From an uncultured Alphaproteobacteria bacterium (lineage in GTDB: Bacteria; Pseudomonadota; Alphaproteobacteria; Rhodobacterales; Rhodobacteraceae): a stretch of DNA of 64,000 nucleotides. Location of the stretch: positions 292,652 through 356,651 of the forward strand of contig CAVXNV010000004.1 of assembly GCA_963763165.1 (NCBI GenBank), read 5' to 3'. The notes beneath the pieces were generated by a model, which was not told where the DNA came from, searched no databases, and was given only the letters and a program-made list of their open reading frames with translations. The position numbers and the translations under genes are program-made. Shown here piece by piece: positions 61 to 21,872 of this stretch. Within the stretch, counting starts at the first letter, position 1. Every line of letters begins with the position of its first letter.

Positions 61-461
61 GATTTTGGATTCCCTATTATCCACGAGAAAAAGCAGGAGG
101 TGCGCCAAACTCGTGTCGCCCCGCTGCCGAATGGCGGGCGAAGCACGTTGCAGAAATCAAACCTCCGACGTCGAGACTCCGAACGGCGATCAGCCCGGTC
201 TGCAAGCGCGCAGTCTAAAAGGCAACTCGGCGGACAGCGCGGACCTCTATTTCCGTAGCCGTTGTCGTAAACACGATGGCCACGCGAGGACGCGGCTTCT
301 CTGCACGGGCAATATTTCAAAGGTGTCGTGGGTTTCTGGGGATTGGCAGAAGTTCGCTATCCGCCCCGTCCACGGCCCCTCGGAACCGCAAGGGACTTGA
401 TACGTTTGCCAAGGCAACGAAGATTTGCCCGGCCTGCAAAGACCGGGAGACAGGATACCGA

Positions 462-1517: not shown

Positions 1518-2014
1518 GCCTCGGCGCCGCCCTCTTCATCGGGTTCCTTATCGTTCAGCGTCTGGGTGAGTTGGGTCTCGCACGCCGCAACACACACGCA
1601 CTGCTCGTGGATGGGGCGCGGGAGGTCGATGCCGATCACTATCTCCTGATCGTCGCGCTCCATGTCGCCTGGATCGCGAGCATCGCGCTGCTGGGCTACG
1701 ATCAAGCCGTTGTCATGGCGTGGCTCGCCGTATTCGCGCTGCTCCAGCTCTTTCGCCTCTGGGTTCTTGCGGCGCTCGGGCGACGCTGGACGACACGGAT
1801 AATCGTCACCGGCACGCCGCTTGTCGCGCGGGGACCGTTCCGCTTCATGCGTCATCCGAACTACACCTTGGTCGTCTGCGAGATCGCCGTGGCACCGCTG
1901 GTCTTGGGGCTCTGGCAGGTCGCGCTGCTGTTCAGCGTGCTCAACGCCGCTGTCCTGACCATCCGCATCCGGGCCGAGAACCGCGCGCTCGCGCCGTATC
2001 GAACAGAGCGATGA
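1514..2014 (+). CDS. Isoprenylcysteine carboxyl methyltransferase family membrane protein (BpsB/SrsB type)
   Basis: Hydrophobic 166 aa; LGRRWTTRII, GPFRFMRHPNY and RIRAEN motifs; ATGA overlap with the PKS stop. Confidence 0.9.
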   Translation: MSLGAALFIGFLIVQRLGELGLARRNTHALLVDGAREVDADHYLLIVALHVAWIASIALLGYDQAVVMAWLAVFALLQLFRLWVLAALGRRWTTRIIVTGTPLVARGPFRFMRHPNYTLVVCEIAVAPLVLGLWQVALLFSVLNAAVLTIRIRAENRALAPYRTER

Positions 2015-3018
2015 ATTGGCTTCTGCGCCACCCCAAGCTGCTGCTGGCAGCGGTTCTGGCGCTTGCTTTCCTCGCTGTAGCGCCCATTGGCAGCCTGCGG
2101 TTCGACAGCAACATCAACCGGGTGTTCCTGTCGGACACGGCGCTTTCCGATGCACAGCGCGACTTCGAAGAGCGCTTCGATACCACGCTTTCGGATGTCG
2201 CCGTGCTGGTCGAATCCCGAACTCAGCTAAGCGAAACCCAGATTGCCGCGGCGCGCGACCTTGCGCTCGATTATGAACTGACACCCGGCGTTGTTGCGGT
2301 CGTCTCGCCTTTCAGCCTCCGCTTTCCGCCGGGCCGCACGCGATGGCCGGAAGAACCAGTCATCCCCGCACGTATCGACCGCACCGACCTGTCAGACCGT
2401 CTTGCCGCGTTTCGCGCTCTCGATACGGGACTTCCGACCCTTCTCGCGCCCGATACACTGTTGATCCTGGCGTCGATTGACACGCGTGAGCGCTCGCTTG
2501 GGGACGCGCTGCCCGAGCTGCGGTCTCTGGCTGCATCGGTCGAAGAGACAGGCGCATCCGTCACGATCACCGGGCAGGATGTCGTCGGCCTCGCCATCCG
2601 GGACGGCCTTGCGAAAGATCTCTTGCGCTTGAACCTGATCGGCGCGGCTCTCGTTCTGCTGGCAGCCATGGCGCTGTTACGTGATCCGCGTCTCGTTGCA
2701 GTCGCGATCGGACCGCCTCTTCTGGGCGCGGTCGGCACACTCGGGCTCGCCGCGTGGCTCGGCCTGCCGATCACCGTGCTTTCGAATGTCATTCCGATGC
2801 TCATGCTCGTCATCGGCGTCGCGAATGGGCTGCATCTGGCAGTGTCCCTTGCCCGGGCGGAGGGGCAGATCGCAGCACGCGTCCAAACCACCTTGCGCGA
2901 GGTCGGCCCGGCCAGCGCGCTGACGTTCGGTCGGCATCTTCTTCCAGACATCGCGGACGGACTTCAGTTCGGTGATCATGGAGTGGCCTCGCTTCGGGGG
3001 GAACCCAAAATAGGCTGA
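2011..3018 (+). pseudogene. Truncated MMPL/RND-family transporter
   Basis: N-terminal TM, periplasmic loop (TITGQ), then the first TM bundle (PITVLSNVIPMLMLVIGVANGLHL). Family-like sequence stops at GPASALT (~2925) and the second half is missing; ATGA overlap with the methyltransferase. Confidence 0.75.
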
Positions 3019-4799: not shown

Positions 4800-5636
4800 T
4801 TAGGATAAACGAGTGGGATCAGTCTGCCTGGCGGCAGCGTTAATCTCCCTGTCTCGATCCGGTGCGGGCTGCCCGGCGTCCGTGTCAAACTCTGGACTGC
4901 ACCTTTCGGAGTCCCACCAGCAGCCACAGTGCAGACGGGGTGGCGAGCGCCAGATCAGCCAAGCCACACCCAGAAGGTCAGGAAGGCCCGCCAGACCGCG
5001 CTGCCAGTTCGTGTAATGGGACCGCCCGGTTTGGCGCGGCGCGTGGGTGGCCGGCATGTGAACGATGTCCCAGCCGTCGCGCTTCATCAGGGCCGGCATG
5101 AAACGGTGCAAATGTCGGAACCAAGGCAGGTCCAGATAAGCCTGGCGCCAGAACACCCGCAGCGCGCAGCCTGAATCCGGACAACCATCGCGCAGCAGCG
5201 CACCGCGGATCATGTTGGCCGTGCGTGACGCCAGCCGTTTGGACAGGCTATCCTTGCGTTTTGCGCGGACGCCCTGGATCATGCCGACAGACGAGGGCGC
5301 CGCCCGGAACGCGGCGATCATCGCTCGCAGGTTCTCCGGTGGATTCTGCCCATCGCCGTCCAGCGTTGCGACGATCGGTGCGCGCGCAATTCGGATGCCG
5401 CTGCGCAAGGCTGCAGACTGGCCCAACGGGTGCATGTGCGTAGCGACGCGAAGCCAGGTCCAGTCAGCAGTCAAGCCTTTTAGAACTTTCCCGGTGTCGT
5501 CCGCCGAGCCGTCATTCACCACGATTACCTCGGCGCCGAGATCTTCGGCAAGCTTGCGCAAATCGCTCAGGAGATTCGGCAGATTTCCGGCCTCATTGTG
5601 GGCCGGGATGACGAAGGCGATTTCCGGCTGTGTCAT
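4800..5636 (-). CDS. GT2 polyprenyl-phosphate glycosyltransferase (ArnC/DPM1-like)
   Basis: VIPAHNE, VVNDGSAD, GQSAAL, TLDGDGQNPP, DSGCALRVF, HRFMPAL motifs. Confidence 0.9.
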   Translation of the reverse strand: MTQPEIAFVIPAHNEAGNLPNLLSDLRKLAEDLGAEVIVVNDGSADDTGKVLKGLTADWTWLRVATHMHPLGQSAALRSGIRIARAPIVATLDGDGQNPPENLRAMIAAFRAAPSSVGMIQGVRAKRKDSLSKRLASRTANMIRGALLRDGCPDSGCALRVFWRQAYLDLPWFRHLHRFMPALMKRDGWDIVHMPATHAPRQTGRSHYTNWQRGLAGLPDLLGVAWLIWRSPPRLHCGCWWDSERCSPEFDTDAGQPAPDRDREINAAARQTDPTRLS

Positions 5637-7144
5637 GGCTTGTCCTCGGTGGACCAGATGGCCCAGTCTTCATTGCGGTAGTAGATGACCTCCGCCGGGG
5701 GCCATGCTGGCAGCGGGCCAGCATTGAGTTGCCCCAGGATCAGCCCATCAGGCTCCCTCTCGGCAAACGCCTCGATATCCTCGGGTGTGGTCAGCAGCGA
5801 AAAGGGATGCTGAAGACGTCCGGCGAAATGGAATTCAGCATGATAAACGCCAGATGCCATCGCAATATGTCCATCTGCGGGTGCAAGGCGTTCGGCAATC
5901 CTGCCCGGAGACATAATTTCTCCGGCTGGCCCAATGGCGTAGGACAACTGCAGTGCCGTGATCGCCGCCGGCCCGGCCAGTATGGTCCATCCGGGCCGCA
6001 TCGCGATGACGAATGCGATAGCCAGCAACAGAAATGCAACGACGACGGCGACCGGCCATGTCACAAGGCGTTCCGCGTCCTCGCCCACAACACCAAGCGC
6101 CATCAGGCAGAAGGCAATCCCCAGCAGGGCCAGGATCGTGGCGGGAATCCACCCGTGGCGGATGTGGTCAGGCCAGCGCCGTGCCAGGAGGATTGCGATC
6201 CACGGGAGCTGTGGCGCCAGATAATGCAGCTGTTTGCCGCTGATAAGGCTGAAGATCAGCAGCGGTCCCAAGGCAGACACCCACAGCAATCTTTCCGGCG
6301 CATCCAGCGGCAGGCGTTTCCAGAAATTTGGCAGCCAGCCCCAGGGGAAAAGCAGCACCGGAATGAGCGGGATGTAATACCAGAAAGGATGGGCATGCGC
6401 GAAACTTGACACCGTGCGCCCTGCCGTCTGTGTCCAGAGCACCGCCTCGCGGTATTCCGGGCCGCCCAGCACAAGCGCCGGAACCAGCCACAAGCCGACC
6501 AATCCGATGCTGGTGGCCAACGCCACAGCAATGCCGGGAAAAACACGCGGGGTGCGAGGCGCCCACAACCGTAGAGCCAAAAGAGGCGGCAAAACATGCA
6601 CGAAAACGACCGGCCCCTTGCTCATGATCCCGAGGGCGACCGCCGCGCCGAACCAAGCCCATTGACGCGGCGAAAAACTCTCGCGTTTCCCGATGCGCCA
6701 AAGCTGGCCGATGGCCAGCACGACGGAAAGCGCCAGCATCATGTCGAACCCGGTATCCCCCGCGTAGAACAGGAAAACAGCACCGGTTGCCAGGATCAGC
6801 ATTGCAGCCGTTCCCGTTCGGCGACTCAGACCCATGCTGTCGCTCACACGACCAGTCGCCCACACGGCGGCCACGGAAAAGGCAGGGGCGACCAATCGTG
6901 CTGCCGTTTCACTCACACCCGGAAGCCAGACCAGGTTGATCAGCCAGAACAGAAGTGGCGGCTTGTGATCGTATGGCACGCCGTTTTTGAAGGGGACCAA
7001 CCAATGATCGCCGAGCCGCATTTCCCAAGCCACGGAAAGATAACGGGTCTCGTCTATTGGCATCAAAGGTCTCAAAAGCACGCCTGTTACGATCAGGAGG
7101 GCAAATGCGACGAGAACGTACCGCCTGTCAGGAAGCGGCATCAT
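5633..7144 (-). CDS. ArnT/GT39-family glycosyltransferase
   Basis: DETRYLSVAWEM, HKPPLLFW, KGPV and KQLHY motifs; many TM segments; ATGA overlap with the GT2 gene. Confidence 0.9.
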   Translation of the reverse strand: MMPLPDRRYVLVAFALLIVTGVLLRPLMPIDETRYLSVAWEMRLGDHWLVPFKNGVPYDHKPPLLFWLINLVWLPGVSETAARLVAPAFSVAAVWATGRVSDSMGLSRRTGTAAMLILATGAVFLFYAGDTGFDMMLALSVVLAIGQLWRIGKRESFSPRQWAWFGAAVALGIMSKGPVVFVHVLPPLLALRLWAPRTPRVFPGIAVALATSIGLVGLWLVPALVLGGPEYREAVLWTQTAGRTVSSFAHAHPFWYYIPLIPVLLFPWGWLPNFWKRLPLDAPERLLWVSALGPLLIFSLISGKQLHYLAPQLPWIAILLARRWPDHIRHGWIPATILALLGIAFCLMALGVVGEDAERLVTWPVAVVVAFLLLAIAFVIAMRPGWTILAGPAAITALQLSYAIGPAGEIMSPGRIAERLAPADGHIAMASGVYHAEFHFAGRLQHPFSLLTTPEDIEAFAEREPDGLILGQLNAGPLPAWPPAEVIYYRNEDWAIWSTEDKP

Positions 7145-7442
7145 TGGGGCGCGCGCGAGAGATCAGAACAAGGTTGCGCAAATATACTACGGTTCCGACG
7201 GACTGGCCCATGATAAAGACCGGATCCCGGCGCCAGATCGCATAGATAAGCAGCATGATGCCGCCCGCCAATGATATCCACCAGAAGACGGTCGGCATGA
7301 CGGACGCGCCCGCACGTTCCGATGCGATCCACTGCACCAGGAACCGTGATGTGAACAATAGCTGTCCGGCGAATCCCAGCAGCAATATCGGGTGCAATGA
7401 AAAGGTGGTCAAAAGGCCTGCTCCATGTGTGTTTCTGCGCAA
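7128..7442 (-). CDS. Lipid-A-disaccharide synthase N-terminal (LAB_N) domain small membrane protein
   Basis: LGFAGQLLFTSRFLVQWIASERAG..P..FWWISL.GG..LLIYAIWRRDPVFI.GQ..G..VY.RNL; start codon uncertain. Confidence 0.85.
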   Translation of the reverse strand: MRRNTHGAGLLTTFSLHPILLLGFAGQLLFTSRFLVQWIASERAGASVMPTVFWWISLAGGIMLLIYAIWRRDPVFIMGQSVGTVVYLRNLVLISRARPNDAAS

Positions 7443-7759
7443 TCGGCGTGATTGCGCACAGCGCTCGCGACGGACCAGAAGCAGGACTTTCTTACAGCGT
7501 GCTTACAGGACTCAAGTGCAGCGGACCCGATGACAAGGTCGGCAAACCGCCGCGCAGAAAGCCGGGCATTTGCTGCGCCAGTCTGTGGTGAAAGCTGAAA
7601 CTCCGACCTTGGCGAGCCTATTCTTCGGTTTACATACCTCTTGCTCTCCTTGTTCGCAAGGCACCGGCGAGGGCTGCCTGACCTCATTCAGTTCGATCTT
7701 TGCCGCTCGGCTTCCTCGACTTTCCGGCCGAACCTTGGAGACACATTCGCACCTCGAAT

Positions 7760-7877
7760 CCGATCGATGGGCCGGACCGCTTCCCAGAGATCATCCAGAG
7801 CATTGCCGTCAAGGACGGGCTCAAGAAACTTCAAGCCGCCGCCTGATCACGTCATCACCGACTTTTGGACATAGCTC
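7760..7877 (+). mobile_element. IS256-family 3' remnant
   Basis: Translation IDGPDRFPEIIQSIAVKDGLKKLQAAA* followed by the end-like sequence TCACCGACTTTTGGACATAGCTC. Confidence 0.6.
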
Positions 7878-8003
7878 CTTCCGGATCGGTGATGAGCTAT
7901 CCGAAGTTCCAGCAGTCCGGAATGGCGGAGGTGTTGAGACGATAGCTGTCCGCGCAGCTAGCCTCCGGCGAAAGCGGGGCGGTCCAGGCTCGGGAAGTAT
8001 TTG

Positions 8004-8033
8004 TTGACAGATTGTCGCACTGAGCCTTATCAT
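8004..8033 (+). promoter_or_regulatory. Sigma70-type promoter for the MCO operon
   Basis: TTGACA (8004-8009), 18-nt spacer, TATCAT (8028-8033); GGAGG RBS before ATG 8111. Confidence 0.55.
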
Positions 8034-8110
8034 CGCTCACTTACGACTCGCCGCCTCGTCTGTAGTCCTTACCCCCCAACTTCGAACACCTGAGACAATG
8101 GAGGTTCTCC

Positions 8111-11100
8111 ATGTCCGTTGCTGGCTGTTTGACCGTTTACCGCAAGGCTCATCTCCTGATCGGTGTAGTCGGCTTGTTGGCACATGCCACGGCATCGTAT
8201 CCAGAAACAGCTCAGATCGGCCCGCCCGATCAGGCCAGGTCCGGGTATTGCACCCGCGACAAGACTGTGGTCGCCCGCGTCGTTGCGCTGGAGCAGATGT
8301 ACATCTACAACCGCTTCGGCGCGTTCAACCCCGGTGGGATGCTCTATGCGCTGCGCCGCGATGTGGTGACCAGCGACGACAGCGATGAGCCGGCATTGGA
8401 CAATATCGGCACCGCGCTGGGTGATGGCGAAGCGATTCCGCCTGAACCCGATCCGGCGACCGATGCGTTGCTTGCGGGAAACGTGCGCTTGCGCCCCGAC
8501 AAGCGGCCGAGGCCGATCGTCCTCCGGGTAAACGAGGGCGACTGCCTGAAGGTCGTGTTCACCAACCTTCTCAGTCCTGACCGCGACGGCGAGGAACATG
8601 TGATCGACCCGGCGACGGGAGAGGAAATCTCCACCGATTCGGATGAACCTGCAACGCGGTCCGCCTCGATCCATGTGAACGGGCTGGAACTCTCGGGTAG
8701 CGTCGCATCGGATGGTACGAATGTGGGCTTCAACGAAAACTCGCTCGCTGACCCGGGCGAGACAAAGACCTACACATGGATTGCCAAGAAGGAGGGTGGC
8801 TTCCTGCTTTACTCGATGGCCGCCGCCGCCGGCGGAGAGGGCGATGGCGGGCAGCTTGGTCTCGGTCTTTTCGGCTCCGTCAATGTCGAACCGGCGGGAT
8901 CCACCTGGTATCGGTCGCAGGTCACGGAAGAGCAGCTCGCGGCATCGCGGGACATGAGCTTCTTGAACTCGGACGGCAAGAAGGGTCTATCGGACGGCGG
9001 CACCCCGGTCATCGACTACGGGTCCACGGACAGCGCTGGTATCCCGATTCTTGCCATGAACATGCCCTCCGATGACCCGGATGCGGCGCACGAGATCGTC
9101 CATTCCGACATCAACGCCATCATCGACGTGCGCGAGAATGGCGAAAAGTGCGACCAGATCCTCGGCCCCGGCTCAGCCTGCGGCGAGCCGTTCCGCGAAT
9201 TCACCGTGATCTTCCATGACGAGATCACGGCCGTGCAGGCGTTTCCGGAACTGGAGGACGAGGAGAACCCGATTTCCGCCCTGCGCGACGGCATGGGCAT
9301 CAACTATGGCGCGGCGGGACTTGGTGCGATGGTGCTGGCCAACCGCAAGGACATCGGCCCGGCCAAGGACTGCGCCGAATGCAAGCTCGAGGAATTCTTT
9401 CTGACCTCCTGGGCAATGGGCGATCCGGCGCTTGTGATCGAACGGGGGCCCGAAAACAAAGCTGTCGCCGCGCTCTATCCCGACGATCCCTCGAACGTGC
9501 ACCATTCCTACCTCGGCGACGCCGTGCGGTTCCGCAACATGCACGCCGGGCCGAAGGAGACGCATGTTTTTCACCTCCACGCGCATCAGTGGACGCAGGA
9601 CTGGCACGATCCGGATTCGGTCTACCTCGACAGCCAGACCATTTCTCCCGGTGCGTCTTTCACTTACGAAGTGCATTATGGCGGCTCCGGGAACCGTAAC
9701 CTGACGCCCGGAGACTCCATCTTTCACTGCCACCTCTACCCGCATTTCGCCCAAGGCATGTGGGAACTTTGGCGCACCCACGACGTGTTCGAGGCCGGCA
9801 CCGACGATCGCAGGCTTCCCGACGCCGAGATTGCCGGCGGCACACCGAATCCCGCCATCGTACCGCTGCCCGACACGCCGCTTCCGCCGATGCCGACCTC
9901 GGCCTTCGAGGGCTATCCGTTCTACATCGCCGGAATTGCCGGTCATCGACCGCCGCAGGCGCCACTCGATATAGATCCGGATGCCTACGCCGAGGATGCA
10001 AACCAGACCCTGATGCGCCACGTCGTCCTTTCAGGCGAACGCGAAGTCGGCGTGGAAGCCTTCGGCACCGACGCGAACGGCGATCCGAAGGAATTGGAGG
10101 CGAAGTATTTCGACACGGCCATCCCCGAGGATGACCCAATGGGTCAGGCGAACCGCATCGCAGCGCGGGTTCGCGCCGAGAATGCGAACGACGCGCTCTT
10201 CGGGCTGGCTGCCAAGCTGACGAAGGCCTGGATCAGGCGGTTGCCGCTCGACGGCACACCAGAAGAGCAGACGGCGATGGAGTTTCACGCCGGAACTGGC
10301 CCCGGCGCGGTGGAGATCGCACGGTCGAAATATGGCGTGCCGGAACGCGGCTATCCGAGCTGCATGTCGAACGGCACCTGCAACGGGCCGGCGAGTGACG
10401 TGTTCTTCCGCGTCAACGGCTATTCCCCGAAACCCGGCGCACCGTTCGCCGATCCATGCCCGACGCGGTTCTATCTCGGCAAGAAGGAAGACGACCCTGA
10501 CGATCCGGCGAAATGGGCGGGGCTTCAGCCAGAACGGAGATACCGCACGACCTATTTGCAATTCGACATGCCGGTGAACAAGCATGGCTGGCACGACCCG
10601 CAGGGACGCCTCATCGCGCTGGAAGAGGACGCGGCAAGCATTCTCGATCATACGCGCGCGCCGGAGCCGTTCTTCTTCCGCGCCAATTCGGGCGAGTGCA
10701 TCGTCTTTGAGGCGACGAACCTGATCCCCTCGAATCTAAACCTCGACGATTTTCAGGTGTTCACACCGACCGATACGATCGGCCAGCACATCCATCTGGT
10801 GAAGTTCGACGTGACCTCTTCCGACGGGTCCGGCAACGGCTGGAACTACGAAGACGGAACGTTCTCGCCCGATGAGGTTCGCGAACGGATTTTGGCCAAC
10901 AATGCCTTCAAGGGCACGGCGGAACTGCGGCCCTTGACCCACCGGCTGTTCCGCAATGGCGGGCCGCTGGCGGGCGATCCGCGCGGGCAATGTCCCGAAA
11001 GCCTGCCCGCCGATCCGACCGAGGCCGAGCATGTGCTGGCCGATCATCCGTGGTGCGGCGCGCAATCGACGATCCAGCGATGGTGGGCCGATCCGCTGCT

Positions 11101-13855
11101 GAACCAGAACGGCGTCGACCGGTCGATCCGCACGGTGTTCACGCATGATCATTTCGGACCGAGTTCGGCCCAGCAGCATGGCTTCTACGCCGCCTTGGTG
11201 ATCGAGCCGAACGGGTCGAGTTGGCAGACGCTCGCCGGCAAGACCTTTGGTGGGCAGGATGCGACCGGTGCGCAGATCGTGTCGCGCCCCGACGGTGGCC
11301 CGACCTCTTTCGCCGCACAGATCGTGGAACCGGCAACCAAGGCCAAACCGGCGAAGTCGCAGCGCGAATACAACATCGCGGTCGCCGATTTCGCGCTGCT
11401 CTACACGGCGCCGCCGCAGAACAAGCCGATCAGCCCGCCGGGCCAGCTTGACCACGACCTGCCCGAGATGGTGTTCGACTCCACCCTGCCGCGGCCGGAA
11501 GGCATCTCCGTATCCGATCCGGGCGGGCAGCTGATGAACTATCGGCACGAACCGATACCGGCGCGTGTCGGCACCGCCAATGCCTTGGGCAAATGGTCGC
11601 TCAAGTCCTTTGATGCTGCGTCCTCGTCGAATGACGCCTGCAAGGCGGCACTCGAGACCGCGCGGCCGACAGGCGGTGGCGGAAACGCGCCCGATGCGCG
11701 TCTCAGCGACTGCCGCGACGGCCCGTGGGGTCCGGATCAGGCGGCGGCATGCGAGGCGCGCGTGATCGCGGAACTGTGCGACCAGAGCGATCTGGCTAAC
11801 GTCTTCTCGTCCTACGCCCATGCCGGGCAGGATCAGGAAATTCGCGACACCATCGCCGCCGACAATCTCACCTACGACACGCGGCGCATCTTCATGGAGA
11901 ACTATCTTCGCCGCGACTGCGCCGACACCGACGACCTCAACTGCTCCGAGCCGGCCGGGCTGCGCAAGGACGGCGACCCGGCGACGCCGCTTCTGGTGGC
12001 GCGGGAAGGCGACGACGTGCAGGTGCGGCTGGTGCAGGGCGCGCAGGAGGAGAACCACATCTTCTTCATGAACGGGATGAAGTGGCTGGCCGTTCCGGGG
12101 TCCGAGAACTCGGGCTGGCGCGCGGCGCAGCATATCGGCATTTCGGAACACTTCGAATTCAACATCAACATCCAGGACCCGTCGCCGCAGCAGACCAAGG
12201 ACCATCTTTATGGCACCACGGCGACCGACAACTTCTGGGATGGGCAATGGGGCTTCCTGAGGGTCGTGGGCGAGGATGATCCGCTGCCCGCGCTTGCGCC
12301 GCTGCCGACAAACCCCGGGCCTGACGGTCTGGTCAATGCCGTGATGGACAACTGTGCGGCCAGCGTTCCGCGCCGGACGTTCCAGGTCGAGGCGTGGCGC
12401 ACCCGCGATCTGATCCCCGACGGCGCGCTTCGCTATCACTCGAAACGCAACCTTTCGGACCCCTCGGCGACGATCTACGTGCTGACCGGAGAGACCTCGG
12501 AGGGCGCGGCCGACGCGGCAGGTACCCGTCCGGCGTCCGTAGCGCATCTGTCGCGACAGATGTCGGACGTCACGCTGATCGCCGCCGGTGACAAGACACC
12601 CGAACCGCTGATCCTGCGGGCACGGGCGGGCGAGTGCATCGAGGTCGAACTGACCAATCGACTGGGTGCCGAGCCTGAGGATCTCACCAACCCGGCGGTC
12701 TGGAGCTGGAACATGATGCCGCCCATCGCCGACAGCCTGAACTTCAACGATGTCCGTGCCTCACGCGCCGTCGGTTTGCACGCGCAGCTCGTTGCGGGCA
12801 ATGCGGTGTTGAATGACGGGTCGGCGGCGGGATTCAACAACTCCTCGCTCGCCTATCCCTGCGATGCGTCCGATCCGCTGCAATTCTGTGGCAGCGACGG
12901 CGGCGACAGCCTGCCCGACGACAAGTATCTGAAGGACAACCGCGTCACCTATCGCTGGTACGCGGGCGACTGGAAGAAGGAACCCGGCCAGACGGAACCG
13001 ACCTTCACGCCGGTGGAGTTAGGAGTGGCGGGATTGCAGAACTTCGCTGACGTCATCAAGGGTGCGTCCCATGGCACCATCGGCGCGCTGGTGGTCGAGC
13101 CGGTGGGCGCCGAGTGGCAGACCGATTGCAGCGTCGTCCGTGCCCACCCGAACGCCGATGCCGACAGCAAGCGCGAGTGCCTGAACGCGGCGGCGACGGT
13201 CACGACACCGGACGGCAAGACCTTCCGCGAATTCGTGCTGATCTACCAGAACGACGTCAGCCTGCGCAATCGCGGCGAGGCGCTGGCGAACCTGCGCAAT
13301 GGAGACGATGCCGAGGACAGCGGGCAGAAGGCGTTCAACTACCGGTTCGAGCCGTTCTGGACGCGGCTTGACGCCAACCCGGCGGCCGACCCCGAGACGA
13401 TGATGGACTACGACTATTCCAACCTGCTTTCGTCAAAGCCCGAAGACGGCTTCGGCGACCCGTCCACCCCGCTCTTTACCGTGGCTGCCGGAACGCCTGT
13501 GCGGCTGCGCATCGTCGAGCCGTCGGGCCATCCGCGCAATGGTGCCTTCACGCTCTCGGGCCATGACTGGGTTGCATATCCCTGGACGGAAAGCTCGACC
13601 GTGCAGACAGATGATCCGGGTCCGCAGAACCGCTCTGGTGACGTGAATGGAATGGGCCCGGGGCGACATGTCGACGTGCTTCTGAACGCCGCTGGCGGGA
13701 CGGAGCGGCTGACAGGCGACTACCTCTACCGCACGCCTCTGGGCTTTGCCTTCGGTGGCGGACAATGGGGCATCATGCGGGTCTTTGATCCCGCGACCTG
13801 CCAGGACGGTGCGCTTCACGACAGCCGCACCGGACGATTGCAGGTCTGCAGGTAG
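8111..13855 (+). CDS. Giant secreted multicopper oxidase, MnxG-like (1914 aa)
   Basis: Cu motifs HVFHLHAH (~9563), HCHLYPHFAQGM (~9725-9760), QHIHLVKFD (~10787) and THDHFGPS (~11144). The N-terminal VVALEQ...NRFGA...ALRRDVV...LRPDKRPRPIVLRVNEGDCL segment resembles MnxG-type MCOs. Hydrophobic Sec-type N-terminus. Confidence 0.88.
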   Translation: MSVAGCLTVYRKAHLLIGVVGLLAHATASYPETAQIGPPDQARSGYCTRDKTVVARVVALEQMYIYNRFGAFNPGGMLYALRRDVVTSDDSDEPALDNIGTALGDGEAIPPEPDPATDALLAGNVRLRPDKRPRPIVLRVNEGDCLKVVFTNLLSPDRDGEEHVIDPATGEEISTDSDEPATRSASIHVNGLELSGSVASDGTNVGFNENSLADPGETKTYTWIAKKEGGFLLYSMAAAAGGEGDGGQLGLGLFGSVNVEPAGSTWYRSQVTEEQLAASRDMSFLNSDGKKGLSDGGTPVIDYGSTDSAGIPILAMNMPSDDPDAAHEIVHSDINAIIDVRENGEKCDQILGPGSACGEPFREFTVIFHDEITAVQAFPELEDEENPISALRDGMGINYGAAGLGAMVLANRKDIGPAKDCAECKLEEFFLTSWAMGDPALVIERGPENKAVAALYPDDPSNVHHSYLGDAVRFRNMHAGPKETHVFHLHAHQWTQDWHDPDSVYLDSQTISPGASFTYEVHYGGSGNRNLTPGDSIFHCHLYPHFAQGMWELWRTHDVFEAGTDDRRLPDAEIAGGTPNPAIVPLPDTPLPPMPTSAFEGYPFYIAGIAGHRPPQAPLDIDPDAYAEDANQTLMRHVVLSGEREVGVEAFGTDANGDPKELEAKYFDTAIPEDDPMGQANRIAARVRAENANDALFGLAAKLTKAWIRRLPLDGTPEEQTAMEFHAGTGPGAVEIARSKYGVPERGYPSCMSNGTCNGPASDVFFRVNGYSPKPGAPFADPCPTRFYLGKKEDDPDDPAKWAGLQPERRYRTTYLQFDMPVNKHGWHDPQGRLIALEEDAASILDHTRAPEPFFFRANSGECIVFEATNLIPSNLNLDDFQVFTPTDTIGQHIHLVKFDVTSSDGSGNGWNYEDGTFSPDEVRERILANNAFKGTAELRPLTHRLFRNGGPLAGDPRGQCPESLPADPTEAEHVLADHPWCGAQSTIQRWWADPLLNQNGVDRSIRTVFTHDHFGPSSAQQHGFYAALVIEPNGSSWQTLAGKTFGGQDATGAQIVSRPDGGPTSFAAQIVEPATKAKPAKSQREYNIAVADFALLYTAPPQNKPISPPGQLDHDLPEMVFDSTLPRPEGISVSDPGGQLMNYRHEPIPARVGTANALGKWSLKSFDAASSSNDACKAALETARPTGGGGNAPDARLSDCRDGPWGPDQAAACEARVIAELCDQSDLANVFSSYAHAGQDQEIRDTIAADNLTYDTRRIFMENYLRRDCADTDDLNCSEPAGLRKDGDPATPLLVAREGDDVQVRLVQGAQEENHIFFMNGMKWLAVPGSENSGWRAAQHIGISEHFEFNINIQDPSPQQTKDHLYGTTATDNFWDGQWGFLRVVGEDDPLPALAPLPTNPGPDGLVNAVMDNCAASVPRRTFQVEAWRTRDLIPDGALRYHSKRNLSDPSATIYVLTGETSEGAADAAGTRPASVAHLSRQMSDVTLIAAGDKTPEPLILRARAGECIEVELTNRLGAEPEDLTNPAVWSWNMMPPIADSLNFNDVRASRAVGLHAQLVAGNAVLNDGSAAGFNNSSLAYPCDASDPLQFCGSDGGDSLPDDKYLKDNRVTYRWYAGDWKKEPGQTEPTFTPVELGVAGLQNFADVIKGASHGTIGALVVEPVGAEWQTDCSVVRAHPNADADSKRECLNAAATVTTPDGKTFREFVLIYQNDVSLRNRGEALANLRNGDDAEDSGQKAFNYRFEPFWTRLDANPAADPETMMDYDYSNLLSSKPEDGFGDPSTPLFTVAAGTPVRLRIVEPSGHPRNGAFTLSGHDWVAYPWTESSTVQTDDPGPQNRSGDVNGMGPGRHVDVLLNAAGGTERLTGDYLYRTPLGFAFGGGQWGIMRVFDPATCQDGALHDSRTGRLQVCR

Positions 13856-13864
13856 GGGGGATGC

Positions 13865-15901
13865 ATGACCTATTCCGCCCATCTTGTCGCCATCGCCCTT
13901 GCGGTACTGGGTATTGTCCCGGCGAGCACGCAAGTCGACGACCCGCTCTCCCTCGGCGAGCTATGCGGCCCGCAGGATGGGCTCGGCCCGAAGCTTGGTA
14001 GTACGGACGATGCCCTTTCGACCGTCTTCGCCCGGCATAAAGATCACGAACCGCCACAGTTGCGTGGCGCGGGATGGGACGTTCCGCAAACCAGTGTCTT
14101 CGATCCGGCCACGGCCGTTAGCGAGCTTGCGGTCGCGGCGCTGACCGGCGGACAGGTCATCGCCGGAGAGGAAGCGCGCGTCACCCTTCGGATCACCGAT
14201 GGCGTGAGTGGACTGCCAGTGACAGGCCGCAGCGTCGCGGGCTGGATGCTCCTTCAGCGCAACGCCCAGGTCGCCGCAGAGATGCCGTGCAGCGCCAAGG
14301 CAACGCTCTTCACGCAAGGACGGGTGACGGCGCGGCCCGATGTCGATCTGAACGCCTCGAAGCTTCTGGTGCTGAACCGCGACGGAAGCATCGCCATCGT
14401 CAACCCGCAGGTGGATTTCACCATCACCCAGATGGAGGGCGTGATCCCGCTTCCGGGGGTCCCCGCCGACTGGGCGCTTGCCGAGGATAGTCAGACGCTT
14501 TTCGTGTCGCTTCCCATCTACGGGGCGGTCGCGGTGATCGACACGCGCAGCTTCCAGATGAGCGGCCTCATCGAACTTCCGAAGGGCAGCATGCCGACGC
14601 AACTGCTGCCGCTGTCGGACGGGGCGGTCGCGGTCTATCTCTCCGCCCACGGAGCGGTGACCATCGCGCGGCCTGACGGCACCGGGCAGACCGACCCCGT
14701 CGCGGTCGGGAGCGGTCCTGTGGCGATGGCCGAAGGGGCGTGGCGGCTGATCGTCGCTGCCTCGGGCAAACTGACCACAATCGACAGCGCGACCGGCGCC
14801 GTCGCGGCGGAAGCGGATATTCCGGCTGGCGAGCCTTCGCTTGCCATCGCGCCGGACGGTCTGTCGGTCTTTGTCACCACGGCCACCGCGACCGGAATCG
14901 AACGCCGCGACATCCGCGCGTTGAAGCTGCGCGGGACGGTGGCGGCCGAGCCTGGCGTCTTCGCACTGGCGCTTGAACCCGGACGCAGGCATCTCGTCGC
15001 CCTGAATCGCAAAACGGACCAGATGCTCCTGATCGACACGCGCACCGATACCGTCTCGGCGACGGGCCGGACGCCGCCCCAACCCGTCGAGGTCGCGTTC
15101 TCGCACGACTACGCCTATGTGCGCGGGCTGGAAGGCGACCATTTCAGCGTCTTCGAACTGGTGGAGCTGCGTCAGGGCAACCTTGTGCCTGTAGAGGTAC
15201 AGTCGGCTGCTGCACCCGTGACCCCGCGCGAGGCGTTGTCGCGCGCCCGGATGATCGCGCCCTACGGACATGGCGCGCTGGTGGGCAATGCCGACGAACA
15301 GGTGGCATATTATTACATGGAGGGCATGAACAGCCCGGTGGGCACGGTCAAGACCTACGGATCGAACGTGCAGGGGCTGATGACCATCGACCGGGGCTTC
15401 CGCGAAACCGCGCCGGGAGTCTACGAAACGACGGCGACGCTGCCTTTCGGCGGTGCCTATGACATTCCCGTCGCTATCGACGCGGACGGGTTCGTCACCT
15501 GTTTCGCCGCCACCGCACTGCCCGCCGCCAAAACCGAGGCGGAGGAAAACCGCACGGCGCTCCGGATCGAACCGGAGGCGCTGAATGGCATGGTCGCAGG
15601 AAGCCGCGGCGCGGTCGTGGTCCGGTTGATCGACGACAGCACCGGCCAGCCGGCCCTCGGTCTCAGGGACGTGCGGCTCCTCGCGTTTTTGCCGAGCGGC
15701 GGCTGGCAGGGCCGCAAGTGGGCCACCGACGTGGGGCAAGGCCGCTATGCCGTCGACTGGAAGTTTCCGAAGCCCGGCCGCTACGGCCTCAGCCTGCAGA
15801 TCGCTTCGGCAGGCATGGGATATGCCGATCAGCGTCCGGTATATTTCAACGTCGGAGCGCCGGGTGACGGCGTGTCCAAAGTAAGGGATGGTTCGCCATG
15901 A
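13865..15901 (+). CDS. Secreted YVTN/YncE-like beta-propeller protein with C-terminal Ig-like (YtkA-like) domain
   Basis: Signal peptide; repeated LFV..P..G.VAVIDT blades; C-terminal GRYAVDWKFPKPGRYGL; 9-nt gap after the MCO. Confidence 0.7.
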   Translation: MTYSAHLVAIALAVLGIVPASTQVDDPLSLGELCGPQDGLGPKLGSTDDALSTVFARHKDHEPPQLRGAGWDVPQTSVFDPATAVSELAVAALTGGQVIAGEEARVTLRITDGVSGLPVTGRSVAGWMLLQRNAQVAAEMPCSAKATLFTQGRVTARPDVDLNASKLLVLNRDGSIAIVNPQVDFTITQMEGVIPLPGVPADWALAEDSQTLFVSLPIYGAVAVIDTRSFQMSGLIELPKGSMPTQLLPLSDGAVAVYLSAHGAVTIARPDGTGQTDPVAVGSGPVAMAEGAWRLIVAASGKLTTIDSATGAVAAEADIPAGEPSLAIAPDGLSVFVTTATATGIERRDIRALKLRGTVAAEPGVFALALEPGRRHLVALNRKTDQMLLIDTRTDTVSATGRTPPQPVEVAFSHDYAYVRGLEGDHFSVFELVELRQGNLVPVEVQSAAAPVTPREALSRARMIAPYGHGALVGNADEQVAYYYMEGMNSPVGTVKTYGSNVQGLMTIDRGFRETAPGVYETTATLPFGGAYDIPVAIDADGFVTCFAATALPAAKTEAEENRTALRIEPEALNGMVAGSRGAVVVRLIDDSTGQPALGLRDVRLLAFLPSGGWQGRKWATDVGQGRYAVDWKFPKPGRYGLSLQIASAGMGYADQRPVYFNVGAPGDGVSKVRDGSP

Positions 15902-17463
15902 AACGCATTCTTCTTGCCCTTCTTGTGCTTTTCGCCCCGGGCCTCGCCGATGCCGACATGGCGCATCAGTTCCTGCTGGTCGGCCATATCGAGAGCCTGA
16001 CCGCGGATGATGCGGCAGACCCGTTGTCAGCGGGCAAGATCAAGGTGCACGGGGTCGAGGTGCTGCTTCCGAAGAATCTGATCGTGCAATTGCCCGCGCG
16101 CTATCTGACAACGGCTGACATCATCAACCTTAATCCCGTTTCGCCCGGCACCGAATCCGGCCTCGCGTTGGATGACGCAACGCCGCCCTTCGCCTCTTAC
16201 GAGGCGACGGTGGTCGGCAATATCGTCGGTCAGCAATATATCGCGGGGTTGGTCTGGATCACCCAGCATTCGCTGGCCGAAGGCGCGGGCTACATCAAGG
16301 AGATCCTGCCCAACGGCGAAATCCATGTCGTTGCCGACCCCGATCCCGCCGCTCCCGTCCAGCAGATCACCCGCATCCGCATCAACGACCCGAACGGCGT
16401 TTTCGCGCCGCCCGATCCGCTGGCCGACGAACGGTTCATGGTGGACGAGGCGAACCCGACAATCCATGCCGGATCGGGCTATCCGATGTGCGTCGCCCAT
16501 GCCGGAGCGCCCGGCGAGTGCCCGGCGACGAACCGGCCGACAGGAGCGGATGGCAAGCCGCTGACGACTTTCGTGATGTGCAACCCGTCGGTGACGCCGC
16601 CGCCCGCGTCCGACCGCTGCGCGACGGGTTTGCCGGGCGCTCCAGCGGGGGCGCTGCGCATCCCGCCCTGCCCAGACTGCGACCAGACGAAACAGGCGCC
16701 ACTGATGCCGGGGGACTACATCATCTACTCCGGCACGCTGGCAAAGGACGGTGCCGACATCTACATCTCGGCGCATACGGTCGGAGCGAATGTCGGTATC
16801 TATACCGCCCCCGGCGGCGATCCTGCCTATGTGCTGATCGAGGGTTCGCTGATAGGGACCCAAGGCCCGCGGATCACCCGTGATCCGCCTGATCCGGCGG
16901 ACCCCACCGCGACCTTTCCGCAGGAGACGCAGGACCGGCTGAAAATCGAGGGGGTGACGACCGACCCCAGCCGCAGCGTCGAACTTTACGCGATCGACGT
17001 CGACGGGGCGACGGGCGACACGAGCTTGCGCATCTTCAACACGGTGCCTGCCACGCCCAACCCGCTTGGCCGCTTCCGGTTGATCCTCGGCCAGCGGGCG
17101 AACGCGCTGTTCGTGAAGGATACCGACATCCTGAAGGGTGCGCCGCGCGAGTTGATGGCGCGGGTAGCGAGCGGCCCCGACCTTGACGGCCAGCCGGTGC
17201 CCGAAGCGCCGCTTTTCGCGCATGGTCTGGTCGCCGGACAATACGTGGCGCCCTTCGGTGAGTTCATCTTTGTCGAGAACAAGGTGATTGGCGATCCGAT
17301 CCTGCCCAACAACTTCGACTGCCTGCCGTTCCTTCTGTTCGGCTCCGGCCCGCTGACGACGACAGTGCCTGCCGGTCCACTGGTCGGAACGCTTGTTCCC
17401 TGGCCCGACGTCATTCCGGCGCCGACCGAAATCAGTTGCGGACCCCGACCGCGACCCTTGTAG
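15898..17463 (+). CDS. Secreted Pro/Cys-rich hypothetical protein (521 aa)
   Basis: Signal peptide MKRILLALLVLFAPGLADA; ATGA overlap with the propeller gene; high-GC codon pattern. Confidence 0.8.
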   Translation: MKRILLALLVLFAPGLADADMAHQFLLVGHIESLTADDAADPLSAGKIKVHGVEVLLPKNLIVQLPARYLTTADIINLNPVSPGTESGLALDDATPPFASYEATVVGNIVGQQYIAGLVWITQHSLAEGAGYIKEILPNGEIHVVADPDPAAPVQQITRIRINDPNGVFAPPDPLADERFMVDEANPTIHAGSGYPMCVAHAGAPGECPATNRPTGADGKPLTTFVMCNPSVTPPPASDRCATGLPGAPAGALRIPPCPDCDQTKQAPLMPGDYIIYSGTLAKDGADIYISAHTVGANVGIYTAPGGDPAYVLIEGSLIGTQGPRITRDPPDPADPTATFPQETQDRLKIEGVTTDPSRSVELYAIDVDGATGDTSLRIFNTVPATPNPLGRFRLILGQRANALFVKDTDILKGAPRELMARVASGPDLDGQPVPEAPLFAHGLVAGQYVAPFGEFIFVENKVIGDPILPNNFDCLPFLLFGSGPLTTTVPAGPLVGTLVPWPDVIPAPTEISCGPRPRPL

Positions 17464-17473
17464 GAGTTTCGTC

Positions 17474-18046
17474 ATGGCTTTCAATGCCGCAGAAGTTGCT
17501 GATCGCCCGGCGCTCGCGACGGACCCGGATACCGACTTCCAGTCGTGGAAGGGGATCGCGGCAGACGGCAACACGCTCCGGTTCTCACGGATGCGGTCGG
17601 ACCAGAAGCGAACCTGGTGCAGTATCGCCAATGCCGACCAGTTCGTCAGGCTGACCCAAGGGCTGAGCTTCAACGGCCATTTCCAGGAATATGGCGATAC
17701 GCTGATCTCGACCAATCATTCTCCTGGCCTCGTCTTGTCACTTGACTTCGACCATCCCGTGATCGGCGCTGGACTGGATGTCGAACCCGCTCCAGCCGCC
17801 GCCGGGGCTGGCCAACCCTACAAGGTGAGCCTGAGGGTATCGAATACTGGCACCGGTGAAGGCTTTCAGGTAGAAAAGGCCGCGAATACCGGCGCATGCC
17901 AGTTCGTCGGCGCGAAAAGCGATGCCGACAACATCGACCGGATGACGGTGACCGTTGCTATGATCGATGACACTGGTCAGGAAACACCTGTGGATTTCGC
18001 GGTAAACAGGCTCGAACTTCTGGTTCCGGTCGGTCTTATCGTCTGA
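17474..18046 (+). CDS. Hypothetical beta-rich protein (190 aa)
   Basis: ATG 17474 follows a TAGGAG RBS that overlaps the upstream stop codon; no signal peptide. Confidence 0.7.
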   Translation: MAFNAAEVADRPALATDPDTDFQSWKGIAADGNTLRFSRMRSDQKRTWCSIANADQFVRLTQGLSFNGHFQEYGDTLISTNHSPGLVLSLDFDHPVIGAGLDVEPAPAAAGAGQPYKVSLRVSNTGTGEGFQVEKAANTGACQFVGAKSDADNIDRMTVTVAMIDDTGQETPVDFAVNRLELLVPVGLIV

Positions 18047-18126
18047 AGAGCAAGCAACACAGCGCTCGGCGAGAAAAAACAACAGAACCGATGGTTCGGA
18101 TGCTTCCTGTCGCGTTGGGCTCTGTT

Positions 18127-18718
18127 GATGGCGTGGATGCCCCCTTTCGACGCAATCACAATGTGCCAAAGTGATGTGCGTCGAAGCCATCACAGAAGGA
18201 GAGAACATCCATGTCCGACGTTACCATCATCGGCCTTGACCTGGCAAAGCGCGTCTTCCAGCTGCACGGCGCGTGCTGCGACGGGTCTGTCGCATTTCGC
18301 AAGAAGCTGTCCCGGGATCAGCTGCTGGCGTTCCTCGCCATGAAGCCTGCGCGATGGCGCATTGCTGCGGTCGCGAGTTCGAGAAGCTGAGACATGAGGT
18401 CCGCTGAATCCCGCCGATTCATGTGACGCCTTCCGTCAGGCGTCAGAAGAACGATGGGGCAGACGCCGAGGCGATCGTGGAGGCGGCGTTGCGCCCGACC
18501 ATGCGCTTTGTCGCTGTGAAGACGGAGGACCAACAGGGCCGGGGCCTGCTGTTTCAAATGCGGCAGATGTTCGTCGGACAGCGCACGCAGATGATCAACG
18601 CGCTGCGTGGGCATGGTCTGGTTGCGGCGCGAGGGCCTGCTTATCTCAAGCGGCTTGCGGATGTAATTGCAGATGAGGACACACTGCTGCCCGACGAGGT
18701 CCGGGAGTTCGGCCAAAG
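18127..18718 (+). pseudogene. IS110/IS1111-family transposase pseudogene with left end
   Basis: ATG 18211 MSDVTIIGLDLAKRVFQLHG (DEDD N-terminus), then frameshifted KNDGADAEAIVEAALRPTMRFVAVKTEDQQ...RTQMINALRGH; cut off at ~18718. Confidence 0.9.
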
Positions 18719-18856
18719 GGGTGACGTCCCGGGGCGTGGTGTAGCTGGCGGTGGTCAACGGGTTTCCCGGTAGGGTCGGGTTGCGACAATCAGCCTGAAC
18801 CGAGGACGACACCCGATGACCAAACCGATGATGGACCTTCGCGCCCTGGTGAAAAG
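18719..18856 (+). mobile_element. IS256-family left end plus first transposase codons
   Basis: GGTGACGTCCCGGGGCGTGGTGTAG end sequence; ATG 18816 MTKPMMDLRALVK. Confidence 0.75.
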
Positions 18857-18955
18857 TGAACTACCCCCCCCCCGAAATTCGGACACTGACATAAGCTACG
18901 ATTTGCAGTCTGCTGATCTTCAACACGAAGGAGATCAGAGATGTCGCGCCGCCGG
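18857..18955 (+). mobile_element. IS3-family left end remnant
   Basis: TGAACTACCCCC...GAAATTCGGACACTGACATAAGCTACGATTTGCAGTCTGCTG, RBS AAGGAG and ATG 18941; 5'-TG start typical of IS3. Confidence 0.7.
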
Positions 18956-19218: not shown

Positions 19219-20370
19219 ATGTTGACGAATTCCGATCTGGTCGAACTGACTAGGTTTCGCCGGGGGCTTCACGAACGTCCGGAACTGTCTGGTGAAGAGC
19301 GCGAAACGGCGCGCACCGTTGCCGCCGCTCTGGAATCGCTACCCGCGATCCGCATCTTGCGCGATTTGGGCGGCCATGGTGTTGCCGCCGTCTTCGAGGG
19401 CGCGGACGACGGCCCGACGGTTCTCTTTCGCGCCGAACTCGACGCTCTTCCTATTATTGAGCTTTCCGATCTTCCCTGGCGGTCGCGCCATCCCGGCAAG
19501 GGGCATTTGTGCGGCCATGACGGGCATATGACGATGCTTCTGGCGTTGGGGCGATTGATCGCGCGCAGACCCTTTGCCAGGGGCCGCGTGGTGCTGATGT
19601 TTCAGCCCGCCGAAGAGGATGGCAGCGGCGCGCGGGCGGTCGTCCGCGACCCGGCATTTGGCGAAATCGCGCCGGATTGGGCCTTTGCAATCCACAACCA
19701 GCCGGGGCGCCCCTTTGGGCAGGTGGGGGTGCGGGCGGGCCTCATCAATTGCGCGTCGCAGGGCCTTGAAATCCGGCTGACAGGCAAGACCGCGCACGCC
19801 GCCAACCCGGAGGACGGCACATCGCCTGCGCGTGCCGTCGGCCACCTGATTTCCGCCTTGAGCGATCTGGGGACGGGCGGCGCGCTGGATGATGCGTTCA
19901 GGCTGGTGACGATCACCCATGTCCGCATCGGAGAGCCGTCTTTCGGCGTCTCTCCCGGCGAGGCATTGATTCATGCGACGCTCAGAACCGCGGATGATGG
20001 CGCCATGACGGCCCTTGCCGGGCAGGCCCGAACACTGGCCGCCGAGGCCGCGAAAGGGGCGGGGCTGGAAGTGGCTTTCGCCGTGCGAGACGATTTTGCG
20101 GCCTCGGTGAACGATCCGGATGCCGCGCGCGTGGCCATGGGGGCGCTGGACGCCTTGGGCGTGGCGCACAGCGCCGCAGGTCTGCCGATGCGCGCGTCGG
20201 AGGATTTTGGCGTCTTCGGATGGCACGCGAAAGCGGCGATGCTGCTGCTGGGGTCCGGTGAGCGTCACGCCGCCCTTCACAATCCCGACTACGATTTTCC
20301 GGACGACCTGATCCCCATCGGCGCCGCCATCTTCGACCGGATCGCGCGCGACCTTCTGGGAAGCGGCTGA
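19219..20370 (+). CDS. M20D amidohydrolase
   Basis: HERPELSGEE, FRAELDALP, HLCGHDGH, FQPAEE, ALHNPDYDFPD. Confidence 0.92.
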   Translation: MLTNSDLVELTRFRRGLHERPELSGEERETARTVAAALESLPAIRILRDLGGHGVAAVFEGADDGPTVLFRAELDALPIIELSDLPWRSRHPGKGHLCGHDGHMTMLLALGRLIARRPFARGRVVLMFQPAEEDGSGARAVVRDPAFGEIAPDWAFAIHNQPGRPFGQVGVRAGLINCASQGLEIRLTGKTAHAANPEDGTSPARAVGHLISALSDLGTGGALDDAFRLVTITHVRIGEPSFGVSPGEALIHATLRTADDGAMTALAGQARTLAAEAAKGAGLEVAFAVRDDFAASVNDPDAARVAMGALDALGVAHSAAGLPMRASEDFGVFGWHAKAAMLLLGSGERHAALHNPDYDFPDDLIPIGAAIFDRIARDLLGSG

Positions 20371-20376
20371 AGCGCC

Positions 20377-21778: not shown

Positions 21779-21872
21779 GGGGCACCTCGGTTTGGACGTT
21801 GGGCGCAAATCTAACAGGCCGCGCCGCGCTGTCCAGCCGCCGCTGTCCCTGCGGCGGCGGGAGCGATGCGGA

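Follow-up and report, generated by a model that had tools for sequence, protein, structure and literature searches.

A six-domain multicopper oxidase of the MnxG family in a four-gene cassette of an uncultured Rhodobacteraceae bacterium

In this study, we analysed a stretch of DNA of 64,000 nucleotides (nt), hereafter referred to as the window, which covers positions 292,652 to 356,651 (forward strand) of contig CAVXNV010000004.1 from assembly GCA_963763165.1, an uncultured member of the Rhodobacteraceae. The window contains the gene of a multicopper oxidase (MCO) belonging to the MnxG family, followed by three further genes, here named B, C and D. Based on the analyses described below, it is very likely that these four genes form a horizontally acquired cassette and that the oxidase is a functional MnxG-family MCO.

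The oxidase gene, its copper ligands and its cassette

The oxidase is encoded by a single open reading frame (ORF) with four copper-ligand motifs, which are listed here with their nucleotide positions in the window and their amino acid (aa) positions in the protein:

8111-13855, plus strand: MnxG-family multicopper oxidase with six cupredoxin domains, 1914 aa, single ATG-initiated ORF
9563-9580, plus strand: HVFHLH (aa 485-490; H485, H488, H490), an HxxHxH motif with one type 1 (T1) copper His and two His of the trinuclear centre
9725-9760, plus strand: HCHLYPHFAQGM (aa 539-550; H539, C540, H541, H545, M550), with the T1 Cys, His and Met and two type 3 (T3) His
10787-10795, plus strand: HIH (aa 893-895; H893, H895) in domain 3, an "N-terminal-type" HxH motif of the trinuclear centre
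11144-11152, plus strand: HDH (aa 1012-1014; H1012, H1014) in domain 3, the second HxH motif of the trinuclear centre

Taken together, the four motifs provide ten His residues, Cys540 and Met550, which are the ligands for one T1 site and one trinuclear centre. Their order is permuted, with HxxHxH and HCHxxxHxxxxM located before both HxH motifs, and the active site is thereby placed in domains 2 and 3. In an alignment with 40 relatives from six phyla (Alpha-, Beta- and Gammaproteobacteria, Nitrospirota, Acidobacteriota, Myxococcota, Planctomycetota and Bacillota), all 12 ligand columns showed no variation in 40/40 sequences, with Bacillus-type and Pseudomonas-type MnxG among them. Here and in the following, the Pseudomonas type is represented by a gammaproteobacterial relative (G084, L093) standing in for the MnxG of Pseudomonas putida. 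Because the ligand columns are invariant and the E-values of the homology are effectively zero, the motif set does not represent a chance occurrence.

The other repeats of the oxidase are degenerate (SIHVNG at nt 8666, ENHIFFMNG at nt 12050 and AFTLSGH at nt 13544); in domains 4 and 6, where the oxidase shows ENH and SGH, the Pseudomonas-type relative L093 has the extra motifs HEH and HGH. The protein contains 28 Cys residues (1.5%), several of which are invariant, including C421/C424, C783, C863 and C961/C982, and disulfide bonding may be predicted from them. Judged by eye, aa 1-28 (ATA followed by S) likely represent a Sec signal peptide. The initial annotation had described an ORF of 1914 aa with these four motifs, a complete ligand set in permuted order, a loss of ligands in the other repeats and many Cys residues; our analysis bears out all of these points and found the motifs at the same positions. 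At the DNA level, the gene contains an internal repeat (9181-9227 versus 13213-13259), which is a trace of domain duplication.

Since same-genus synteny was uninformative at this locus, the boundaries of the cassette were set by comparing it with the cassettes of other genomes. The resulting unit and its elements are as follows:

7969-18046, plus strand: transferable unit of promoter region and four genes, 10.1 kb, common to other alphaproteobacteria, with differing flanks
8004-8033, plus strand: sigma-70-like promoter TTGACA-18-TATCAT, 11/12 match to the consensus, a consensus match only
8100-8104, plus strand: ribosome-binding site (RBS) GGAGG before the oxidase
13865-15901, plus strand: gene B, 678 aa with a signal peptide, a beta-propeller of the YncE/"lactonase" type and a weak C-terminal YtkA-like domain
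15898-17463, plus strand: gene C, 521 aa, secreted, rich in Pro and Cys, matching no family
17471-18046, plus strand: gene D, 191 aa, signal peptide not seen, matching no family

Neighbouring genes are separated by 9 nt (oxidase and B), -4 nt (B and C, an ATGA overlap) and 7 nt (C and D). In a tblastn survey of 87 loci, B was located directly downstream of the oxidase in most loci extending far enough, and this pairing was found in Alpha-, Beta- and Gammaproteobacteria, Nitrospira, Acidobacteriota and Myxococcota. Based on this distribution, B is a shared, family-wide partner of the oxidase. The same survey revealed that C accompanies the oxidase in Proteobacteria, Nitrospira and some Planctomycetota, and that D is limited to the closest alphaproteobacterial subclade. 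Known families and solved structures matched neither C nor D; a weak match of C to the PDB entry 9oh5 (E = 3.6e-4) contained no significant stretch and was dismissed. Conserved residues of C are C198, C208, C261, C514 and H293. In the operon of Roseomonas gilardii pRo-1, which has SCO and cytochrome c genes in addition, C corresponds to two overlapping ORFs of 124 aa and 383 aa (L095 19838-21330), probably a split or mis-called gene C.

Upstream of the oxidase, the -35 hexamer, a GACAnnnTGTC palindrome, the RBS and the start codon are conserved in a metagenome-assembled genome (MAG) labelled "Paracoccaceae bacterium", and the -10 element is not. The palindrome (8005-8016) overlaps the -35 hexamer of the oxidase promoter and is a possible operator. 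An ORF at 7570-8007 (145 aa, TTG start) was rejected as a gene because of its low complexity, the lack of homologs and its location in the non-conserved spacer.

Family assignment and phylogenetic position

The only cupredoxin domain detected by Pfam in the oxidase was PF07732 (aa 170-260). The NCBIfam MnxG model NF041487, by comparison, aligned end to end (profile positions 3-1893) with a score of 883.5 bits; the Pseudomonas-type relative G084 reached 2414 bits on this model. Among the sequences of the PDB, the best match was 9bxa_A, the MnxG of Bacillus sp. PL-12 (E = 7.6e-94), and MnxG is thus the closest named family. In the alignment with 9bxa, H485/H488/H490 correspond to H281/H284/H286, and H539/C540/H541/H545 to H334/C335/H336/H340; the counterpart of H545, H340, is the residue mutated in the deposited 9bxa complex ("Mnx H340A"). 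By homology to 9bxa, and in this sense indirectly, the ligands of domains 2 and 3 are predicted to converge on one trinuclear site.

The oxidase was modelled with AlphaFold2 as two halves from an alignment of 81 sequences. For both models, aa 45-1110 (predicted local distance difference test, pLDDT, 78.5; predicted template modelling score, pTM, 0.85) and aa 1100-1914 (pLDDT 88.1, pTM 0.92), the top fold match in the PDB was again 9bxa_A, with E = 2.8e-31 and E = 1.4e-40, respectively. In the case of the C-terminal half, six-domain ceruloplasmin and factor V/VIII came next, and the fold matches of both halves were exclusively MCOs and ceruloplasmin-like proteins. Many relatives of the oxidase carry the label "manganese oxidase" at the Joint Genome Institute (JGI). 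Elsewhere in the genome, we detected one ordinary MCO (C11:907-1248); a search of the genome for the MopA-type animal haem peroxidase (PF03098) gave no match, and the control genomes were equally silent.

The family is large, with more than 2400 matches in a word-indexed search, 635 clusters (50% identity) matching the domain 2-3 core at E <= 1e-30, and relatives carried by at least 575 GTDB species genomes. A maximum-likelihood tree placed the oxidase inside an alphaproteobacterial subclade with a support of 100% (Shimodaira-Hasegawa-like approximate likelihood ratio test, SH-aLRT), together with Loktanella atrilutea, Oceaniglobus roseus, the plasmid of Microvirga sp. M2, a Geminicoccaceae MAG and a "Desulfopila" MAG. 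A Nitrospira group forms the sister lineage of this subclade, and the large clade enclosing the two also contains Acidobacteriota, Burkholderiales/Xanthomonadales/Acetobacteraceae and Planctomycetota. The Pseudomonas-type G084 is located on a long branch outside this clade, and Bacillus-type MnxG forms a distant outgroup. According to this placement, the oxidase is a member of the MnxG family, yet the equivalog of neither characterised enzyme. The MnxG-type identity proposed in the initial annotation is therefore supported by profile, fold and tree, with the oxidase in a clade separate from the Bacillus and Pseudomonas types.

In the MAG of an "uncultured Desulfopila sp." (L008), the cassette is 75% identical and nested in the alphaproteobacterial clade; this assignment to the Desulfobacterota probably results from mis-binning, or else it reflects a cross-phylum transfer.

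A second MnxG-like lineage was found in 11/401 species of the Rhodobacterales, including one genome of the same genus, and MnxG-type MCOs are therefore rare in this order, not unique. The ORFs of this lineage range from 2350 to 2720 aa and share 40-55% identity with aa 50-1100 of the oxidase; their C-terminal half is divergent, and HVFHLH, HCHLYPHFAQGM, HIH and HDH are retained. Examples are found on a Roseivivax marinus plasmid (L098 6980-14023) and in G577 plus 10 other Rhodobacterales genomes, and the lineage is present on plasmids of Paracoccus, Roseivivax, Shinella and Sphingobium. Among the Gammaproteobacteria, 3/401 had any relative of the oxidase.

Proposed mechanism and candidate substrate

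Based on MCO chemistry and the precedents of Bacillus and Pseudomonas, we propose that the oxidase would be secreted by Sec export and loaded with copper. Its T1 copper (H485, C540, H545, M550) would take single electrons from a metal substrate, likeliest Mn(II) and then Mn(III), and the electrons would cross the H539-C540-H541 bridge to the trinuclear copper centre. Domain 2 would contribute H488/H490/H539/H541 and domain 3 H893/H895/H1012/H1014 to this centre, at which O2 would be reduced to water. Domains 1 and 4-6, which have lost the paired-His ligands, would serve as a scaffold, and B, C and D might, speculatively, act as partner subunits or maturation factors.

As judged from homology, Mn(II) appears to be the slightly favoured candidate for the physiological substrate. 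Both relatives with functional data, i.e., the Bacillus Mnx complex and P. putida MnxG, are Mn(II)/Mn(III) oxidases (PMC13689576; PMC5622069), and in P. putida, Mn oxidation is lost when mnxG and a second MCO gene are deleted together (PMC13689576).

Several observations weigh against the assignment of this function. The oxidase is located outside both experimentally characterised clades, its identity amounting to 30-36% with the Pseudomonas-type relative and to 29-37%, in patches, with the Bacillus type, and its score of 883.5 bits is well below the equivalog cut-off of NF041487 (3100 bits). Our literature search yielded no functional work on proteins of its clade, and a previous study reported that homology poorly predicts Mn oxidase function for mnxG-like genes (bioRxiv 10.1101/2024.12.25.630300). 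SCO and cytochrome c genes are absent from the cassette, with no SCO family matched by B, C or D, and tblastn with the SCO (E <= 1e-3) and the cytochrome c of the Roseomonas operon gave no match in the genome. With regard to MnxE/MnxF, the conserved block contains no small ORFs upstream of the oxidase, and the two small ORFs that precede mnxG in Priestia, used as tblastn queries, yielded no match in the genome, which is a weak negative because such proteins are short and divergent.

The same enzyme and cassette could also act on a substrate other than Mn(II), such as Fe(II), Cu(I) or a compound of organic or phenolic nature. In that case, the enzyme would oxidise Mn as a side reaction or not at all, and with Fe(II) the protein would be a ferroxidase, as in six-domain ceruloplasmin. 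We consider this a possible, clearly less probable explanation. It is consistent with a clade that has no characterised member, with an MCO substrate range that is unpredictable from sequence (bioRxiv 10.1101/2024.12.25.630300) and with the rank of ceruloplasmin and its relatives, next after MnxG, among the fold matches of the C-terminal half. Furthermore, relatives of the oxidase are common in nitrifiers and Acidobacteriota that are not known Mn oxidisers, and other clades pair the gene with cytochrome c and SCO genes, hinting at a varied physiology. Besides the two Mn-oxidising relatives, however, two genomic neighbours argue for Mn(II): the partner gene B is also part of the P. putida mnxG operon, and the plasmid of Microvirga sp. 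M2 carries an Nramp gene (Mn2+/Fe2+ transporter family) near its cassette, beyond a downstream insertion sequence (IS) of the IS6 type (19834-22008).

Origin of the cassette and comparison with known systems

The full-length oxidase gene was found in none of the sampled same-genus genomes (0/24) and none of the nearest relatives (0/40). Across an even sample of 401 species of the Rhodobacterales, only two showed the full-length type, namely the window genome and a second carrier with 79% identity, evidently Oceaniglobus roseus. The oxidase falls within the same 90% cluster as a protein of the Paracoccaceae MAG (91% aa identity), and the corresponding DNA of this MAG (L096 9862-19880) matches window positions 7969-18046 with 83.0% nt identity over 10,095 bp. 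The MAG contains the same four genes in the same order within an unrelated neighbourhood, and the shared DNA ends exactly at the stop codon of D; similarity to the cassettes of Loktanella, Oceaniglobus and Microvirga also stops exactly at 18046. The housekeeping flank of the MAG matches a different contig (C11) of the window genome with 69-74% nt identity. This synteny supports the roseobacter-like host that had been suggested initially. Within the genus, only G010 shares DNA close to the locus (a glycosyltransferase block described below, window 4903-7522), and the genomes are heavily rearranged.

Traces of mobile elements are present on both flanks of the cassette:

7764-7881, strand unassigned: scrap resembling an IS256-family transposase in the left flank, 72-86% identity to plasmids of Paracoccus, Sulfitobacter and Thioclava
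18116-18773, plus strand: remnant of an IS110-family transposase with a frameshift and a truncation, immediately following the cassette

Two of the plasmid matches of the left scrap are annotated as IS256 family transposase. The IS110 remnant consists of two ORF pieces (18211-18390 and 18423-18773; PF01548 with 24 bits, E = 3e-5) and is, at the nt level, 72% identical to IS110 transposases annotated on plasmids of Sulfitobacter and Mameliella; no intact copy was found elsewhere in the genome. Overall, four independent loci show traces of mobile elements next to the cassette. An intact IS110 transposase homolog of 343 aa adjoins the oxidase in L021, and an IS6 transposase is located just upstream of the cassette in L097, the Logan assembly of the Paracoccaceae relative described above. 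On the Microvirga sp. M2 plasmid (L007/L010), copies of IS6 lie on both sides of the cassette, one of them about 7 kb upstream of the oxidase. Members of the cassette clade come from Rhodobacterales, Hyphomicrobiales (plasmid) and Geminicoccaceae, and the Microvirga plasmid copy nests inside this clade with 74% aa identity. A search for direct or inverted repeats, tRNA genes and Rfam families flanking the cassette revealed none of relevance.

These results provide good support for the horizontal acquisition of the cassette, which the initial annotation had proposed for the oxidase, and suggest that the 10.1-kb unit was gained from another alphaproteobacterium by IS-mediated movement. Base composition, which shows no foreign signal (GC content at third codon positions, GC3, of 0.79 versus a genome median of 0.78), speaks against this origin; such an unremarkable composition is, however, expected for an exchange among high-GC alphaproteobacteria. 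Alternatively, the cassette could have been inherited vertically within the Rhodobacterales and lost many times, in line with its matching GC and GC3 and with nearest relatives that are mostly Rhodobacterales/Paracoccaceae. This scenario is very improbable, as it would need a loss in 24/24 same-genus genomes and in about 99.5% of the sampled species of the order. It is also at odds with the different loci in two Paracoccaceae genomes, whose cassettes share 83% identity versus 69-74% for syntenic housekeeping DNA, with the IS elements or remnants at the four loci and with the nested plasmid copy in Microvirga, a member of the Hyphomicrobiales.

Because the oxidase shares 91% aa and only 83% nt identity with its nearest relative, the gene is, as far as such a comparison indicates, under purifying selection. 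That the cassette is the decaying, non-functional cargo of a dead mobile element, as the degraded flanking IS elements and the lack of an SCO chaperone gene nearby might suggest, is hardly credible in view of this signature, of four intact ORFs with tight or overlapping junctions, of the retention of all copper ligands and of the conserved -35 element, RBS and start codon.

Further features were observed on both sides of the cassette. To the right, an element of 80 bp (18868-18946), possibly a small repeat or a miniature inverted-repeat transposable element (MITE), is 95% identical to C11:496786-496865 of the same genome, and a Rhodobacterales MAG (L019 9572-9639) contains a similar sequence directly upstream of its oxidase gene. 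To the left, the region 4800-7522 (minus strand) encodes two glycosyltransferases, one GT2 and one ArnT-like (PMT-family), together with a small LAB_N membrane protein. This block looks like a module for aminoarabinose-type modification of lipid A or a lipid carrier and shows a patchy distribution (3/25 genomes, with G010 as the only same-genus sharer at 77% nt identity). At 276-3018, the gene of a type III polyketide synthase precedes those of an ICMT-family methyltransferase and an MMPL/RND-like transporter; together, they form a possible alkylresorcinol/pyrone lipid cluster.

Returning to the horizontally acquired MnxG-family cassette, a more far-reaching interpretation is that it represents a self-sufficient, IS-mobilised Mn-oxidation module, in which B and C would replace the MnxE3F3 cap as obligate subunits or assembly factors. 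We regard this as tentative and rather doubtful, and the same applies to the idea that the complex, with B adjoining MnxG-like oxidases in at least five phyla, is a Gram-negative complex of the Mnx type. If true, a roseobacter-type host would become able to form Mn oxides by receiving nothing but the cassette, and this would provide an enzymatic MCO route in a group whose Mn oxidation has been explained by superoxide and haem peroxidases.

Many studies of metagenomes and metaproteomes score MnxG-like genes as "manganese oxidase". To our knowledge, biochemistry has been done on the Bacillus enzyme only, and genetics on the P. putida gene only. The window locus represents a third MnxG lineage, which is the largest by far among the sampled loci. 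This lineage is amenable to testing, as it offers a defined unit (promoter and four genes, 10.1 kb), a propeller partner across phyla and cultured carriers of the same cassette, i.e., Loktanella atrilutea DSM 29326, Oceaniglobus roseus XY-R6 and Microvirga sp. M2. In marine Rhodobacterales, Mn oxidation is ascribed to superoxide and haem-peroxidase routes, beside which they would gain a rare, horizontally spread, putative MCO route. The presence of mnxG-like genes in uncultured Nitrospira, Nitrosomonas, Methylococcaceae and Nitrospinae has been remarked before; new in this study are the delimited four-gene mobile cassette, the phylum-spanning pairing of oxidase and propeller, and the list of cultured carriers. 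The advance is incremental, with an enzyme family that is already recognised and widespread and a system that is not of a new kind.

Comparing our results to known systems, the MnxG of P. putida GB-1 (PputGB1_2447; NF041487) resembles the window oxidase in its length of about 1900-1950 aa, its six-domain layout and its large insertions, and the motif order of the Pseudomonas type (L093) is identical (HVFHLH, HCHFYPHFAQGM, HIH, HDH). The six-gene mnxG operon of P. putida GB-1 includes a beta-propeller lactonase-family gene beside the oxidase (PMC8218464), whose counterpart here is B. In contrast, the SCO1/SenC, SurA-N and ABC genes of that operon (PMC8218464) are not part of the window cassette, which contains C and D instead. 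The promoters differ as well, being sigma-70-like here, where sigma-54 was not specifically searched for, and reported as sigma-54 in the case of P. putida.

The Mnx complex of Bacillus sp. PL-12 (MnxG-MnxE3F3, 9bxa) shows the same ligand set in the same order, and its MnxG shares with the window oxidase the single T1 site and single trinuclear centre in domains 2 and 3 as well as an E-x-H instead of HxH in domain 4. With 1217-1228 aa, Bacillus MnxG is, however, about 700 residues shorter; the extra residues of the window oxidase are insertions between or within domains (aa 268-360, 622-813, 926-1003 and 1040-1286). The Bacillus enzyme belongs to the spore exosporium and is separated by a very long tree distance, whereas the window oxidase is Gram-negative and predicted to be secreted. 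Human and rat ceruloplasmin and factors V/VIII also consist of six cupredoxin domains, with about 10-12% identity to the window oxidase. Ceruloplasmin has its trinuclear centre at the interface of domains 1 and 6 and contains three T1 sites, in contrast to the one T1 site and the trinuclear ligands in domains 2 and 3 of the window oxidase.

A further group of relatives comprises the mnxG-like genes of Nitrospira, Nitrosomonas, Methylococcaceae and Acidobacteriota MAGs, which belong to the same clade in a sister position, with 44-55% identity. These loci, derived from sand filters and other metagenomes, contain the partner B too and frequently C, and they have already been remarked as putative Mn oxidases with unproven function (bioRxiv 10.1101/2024.12.25.630300). 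Several other subclades show lipobox-like N-termini, whereas the subclade of the window oxidase has a plain signal peptide. Unlike the MAG loci, those of the alphaproteobacterial subclade also contain gene D and are associated with IS elements or located on plasmids.

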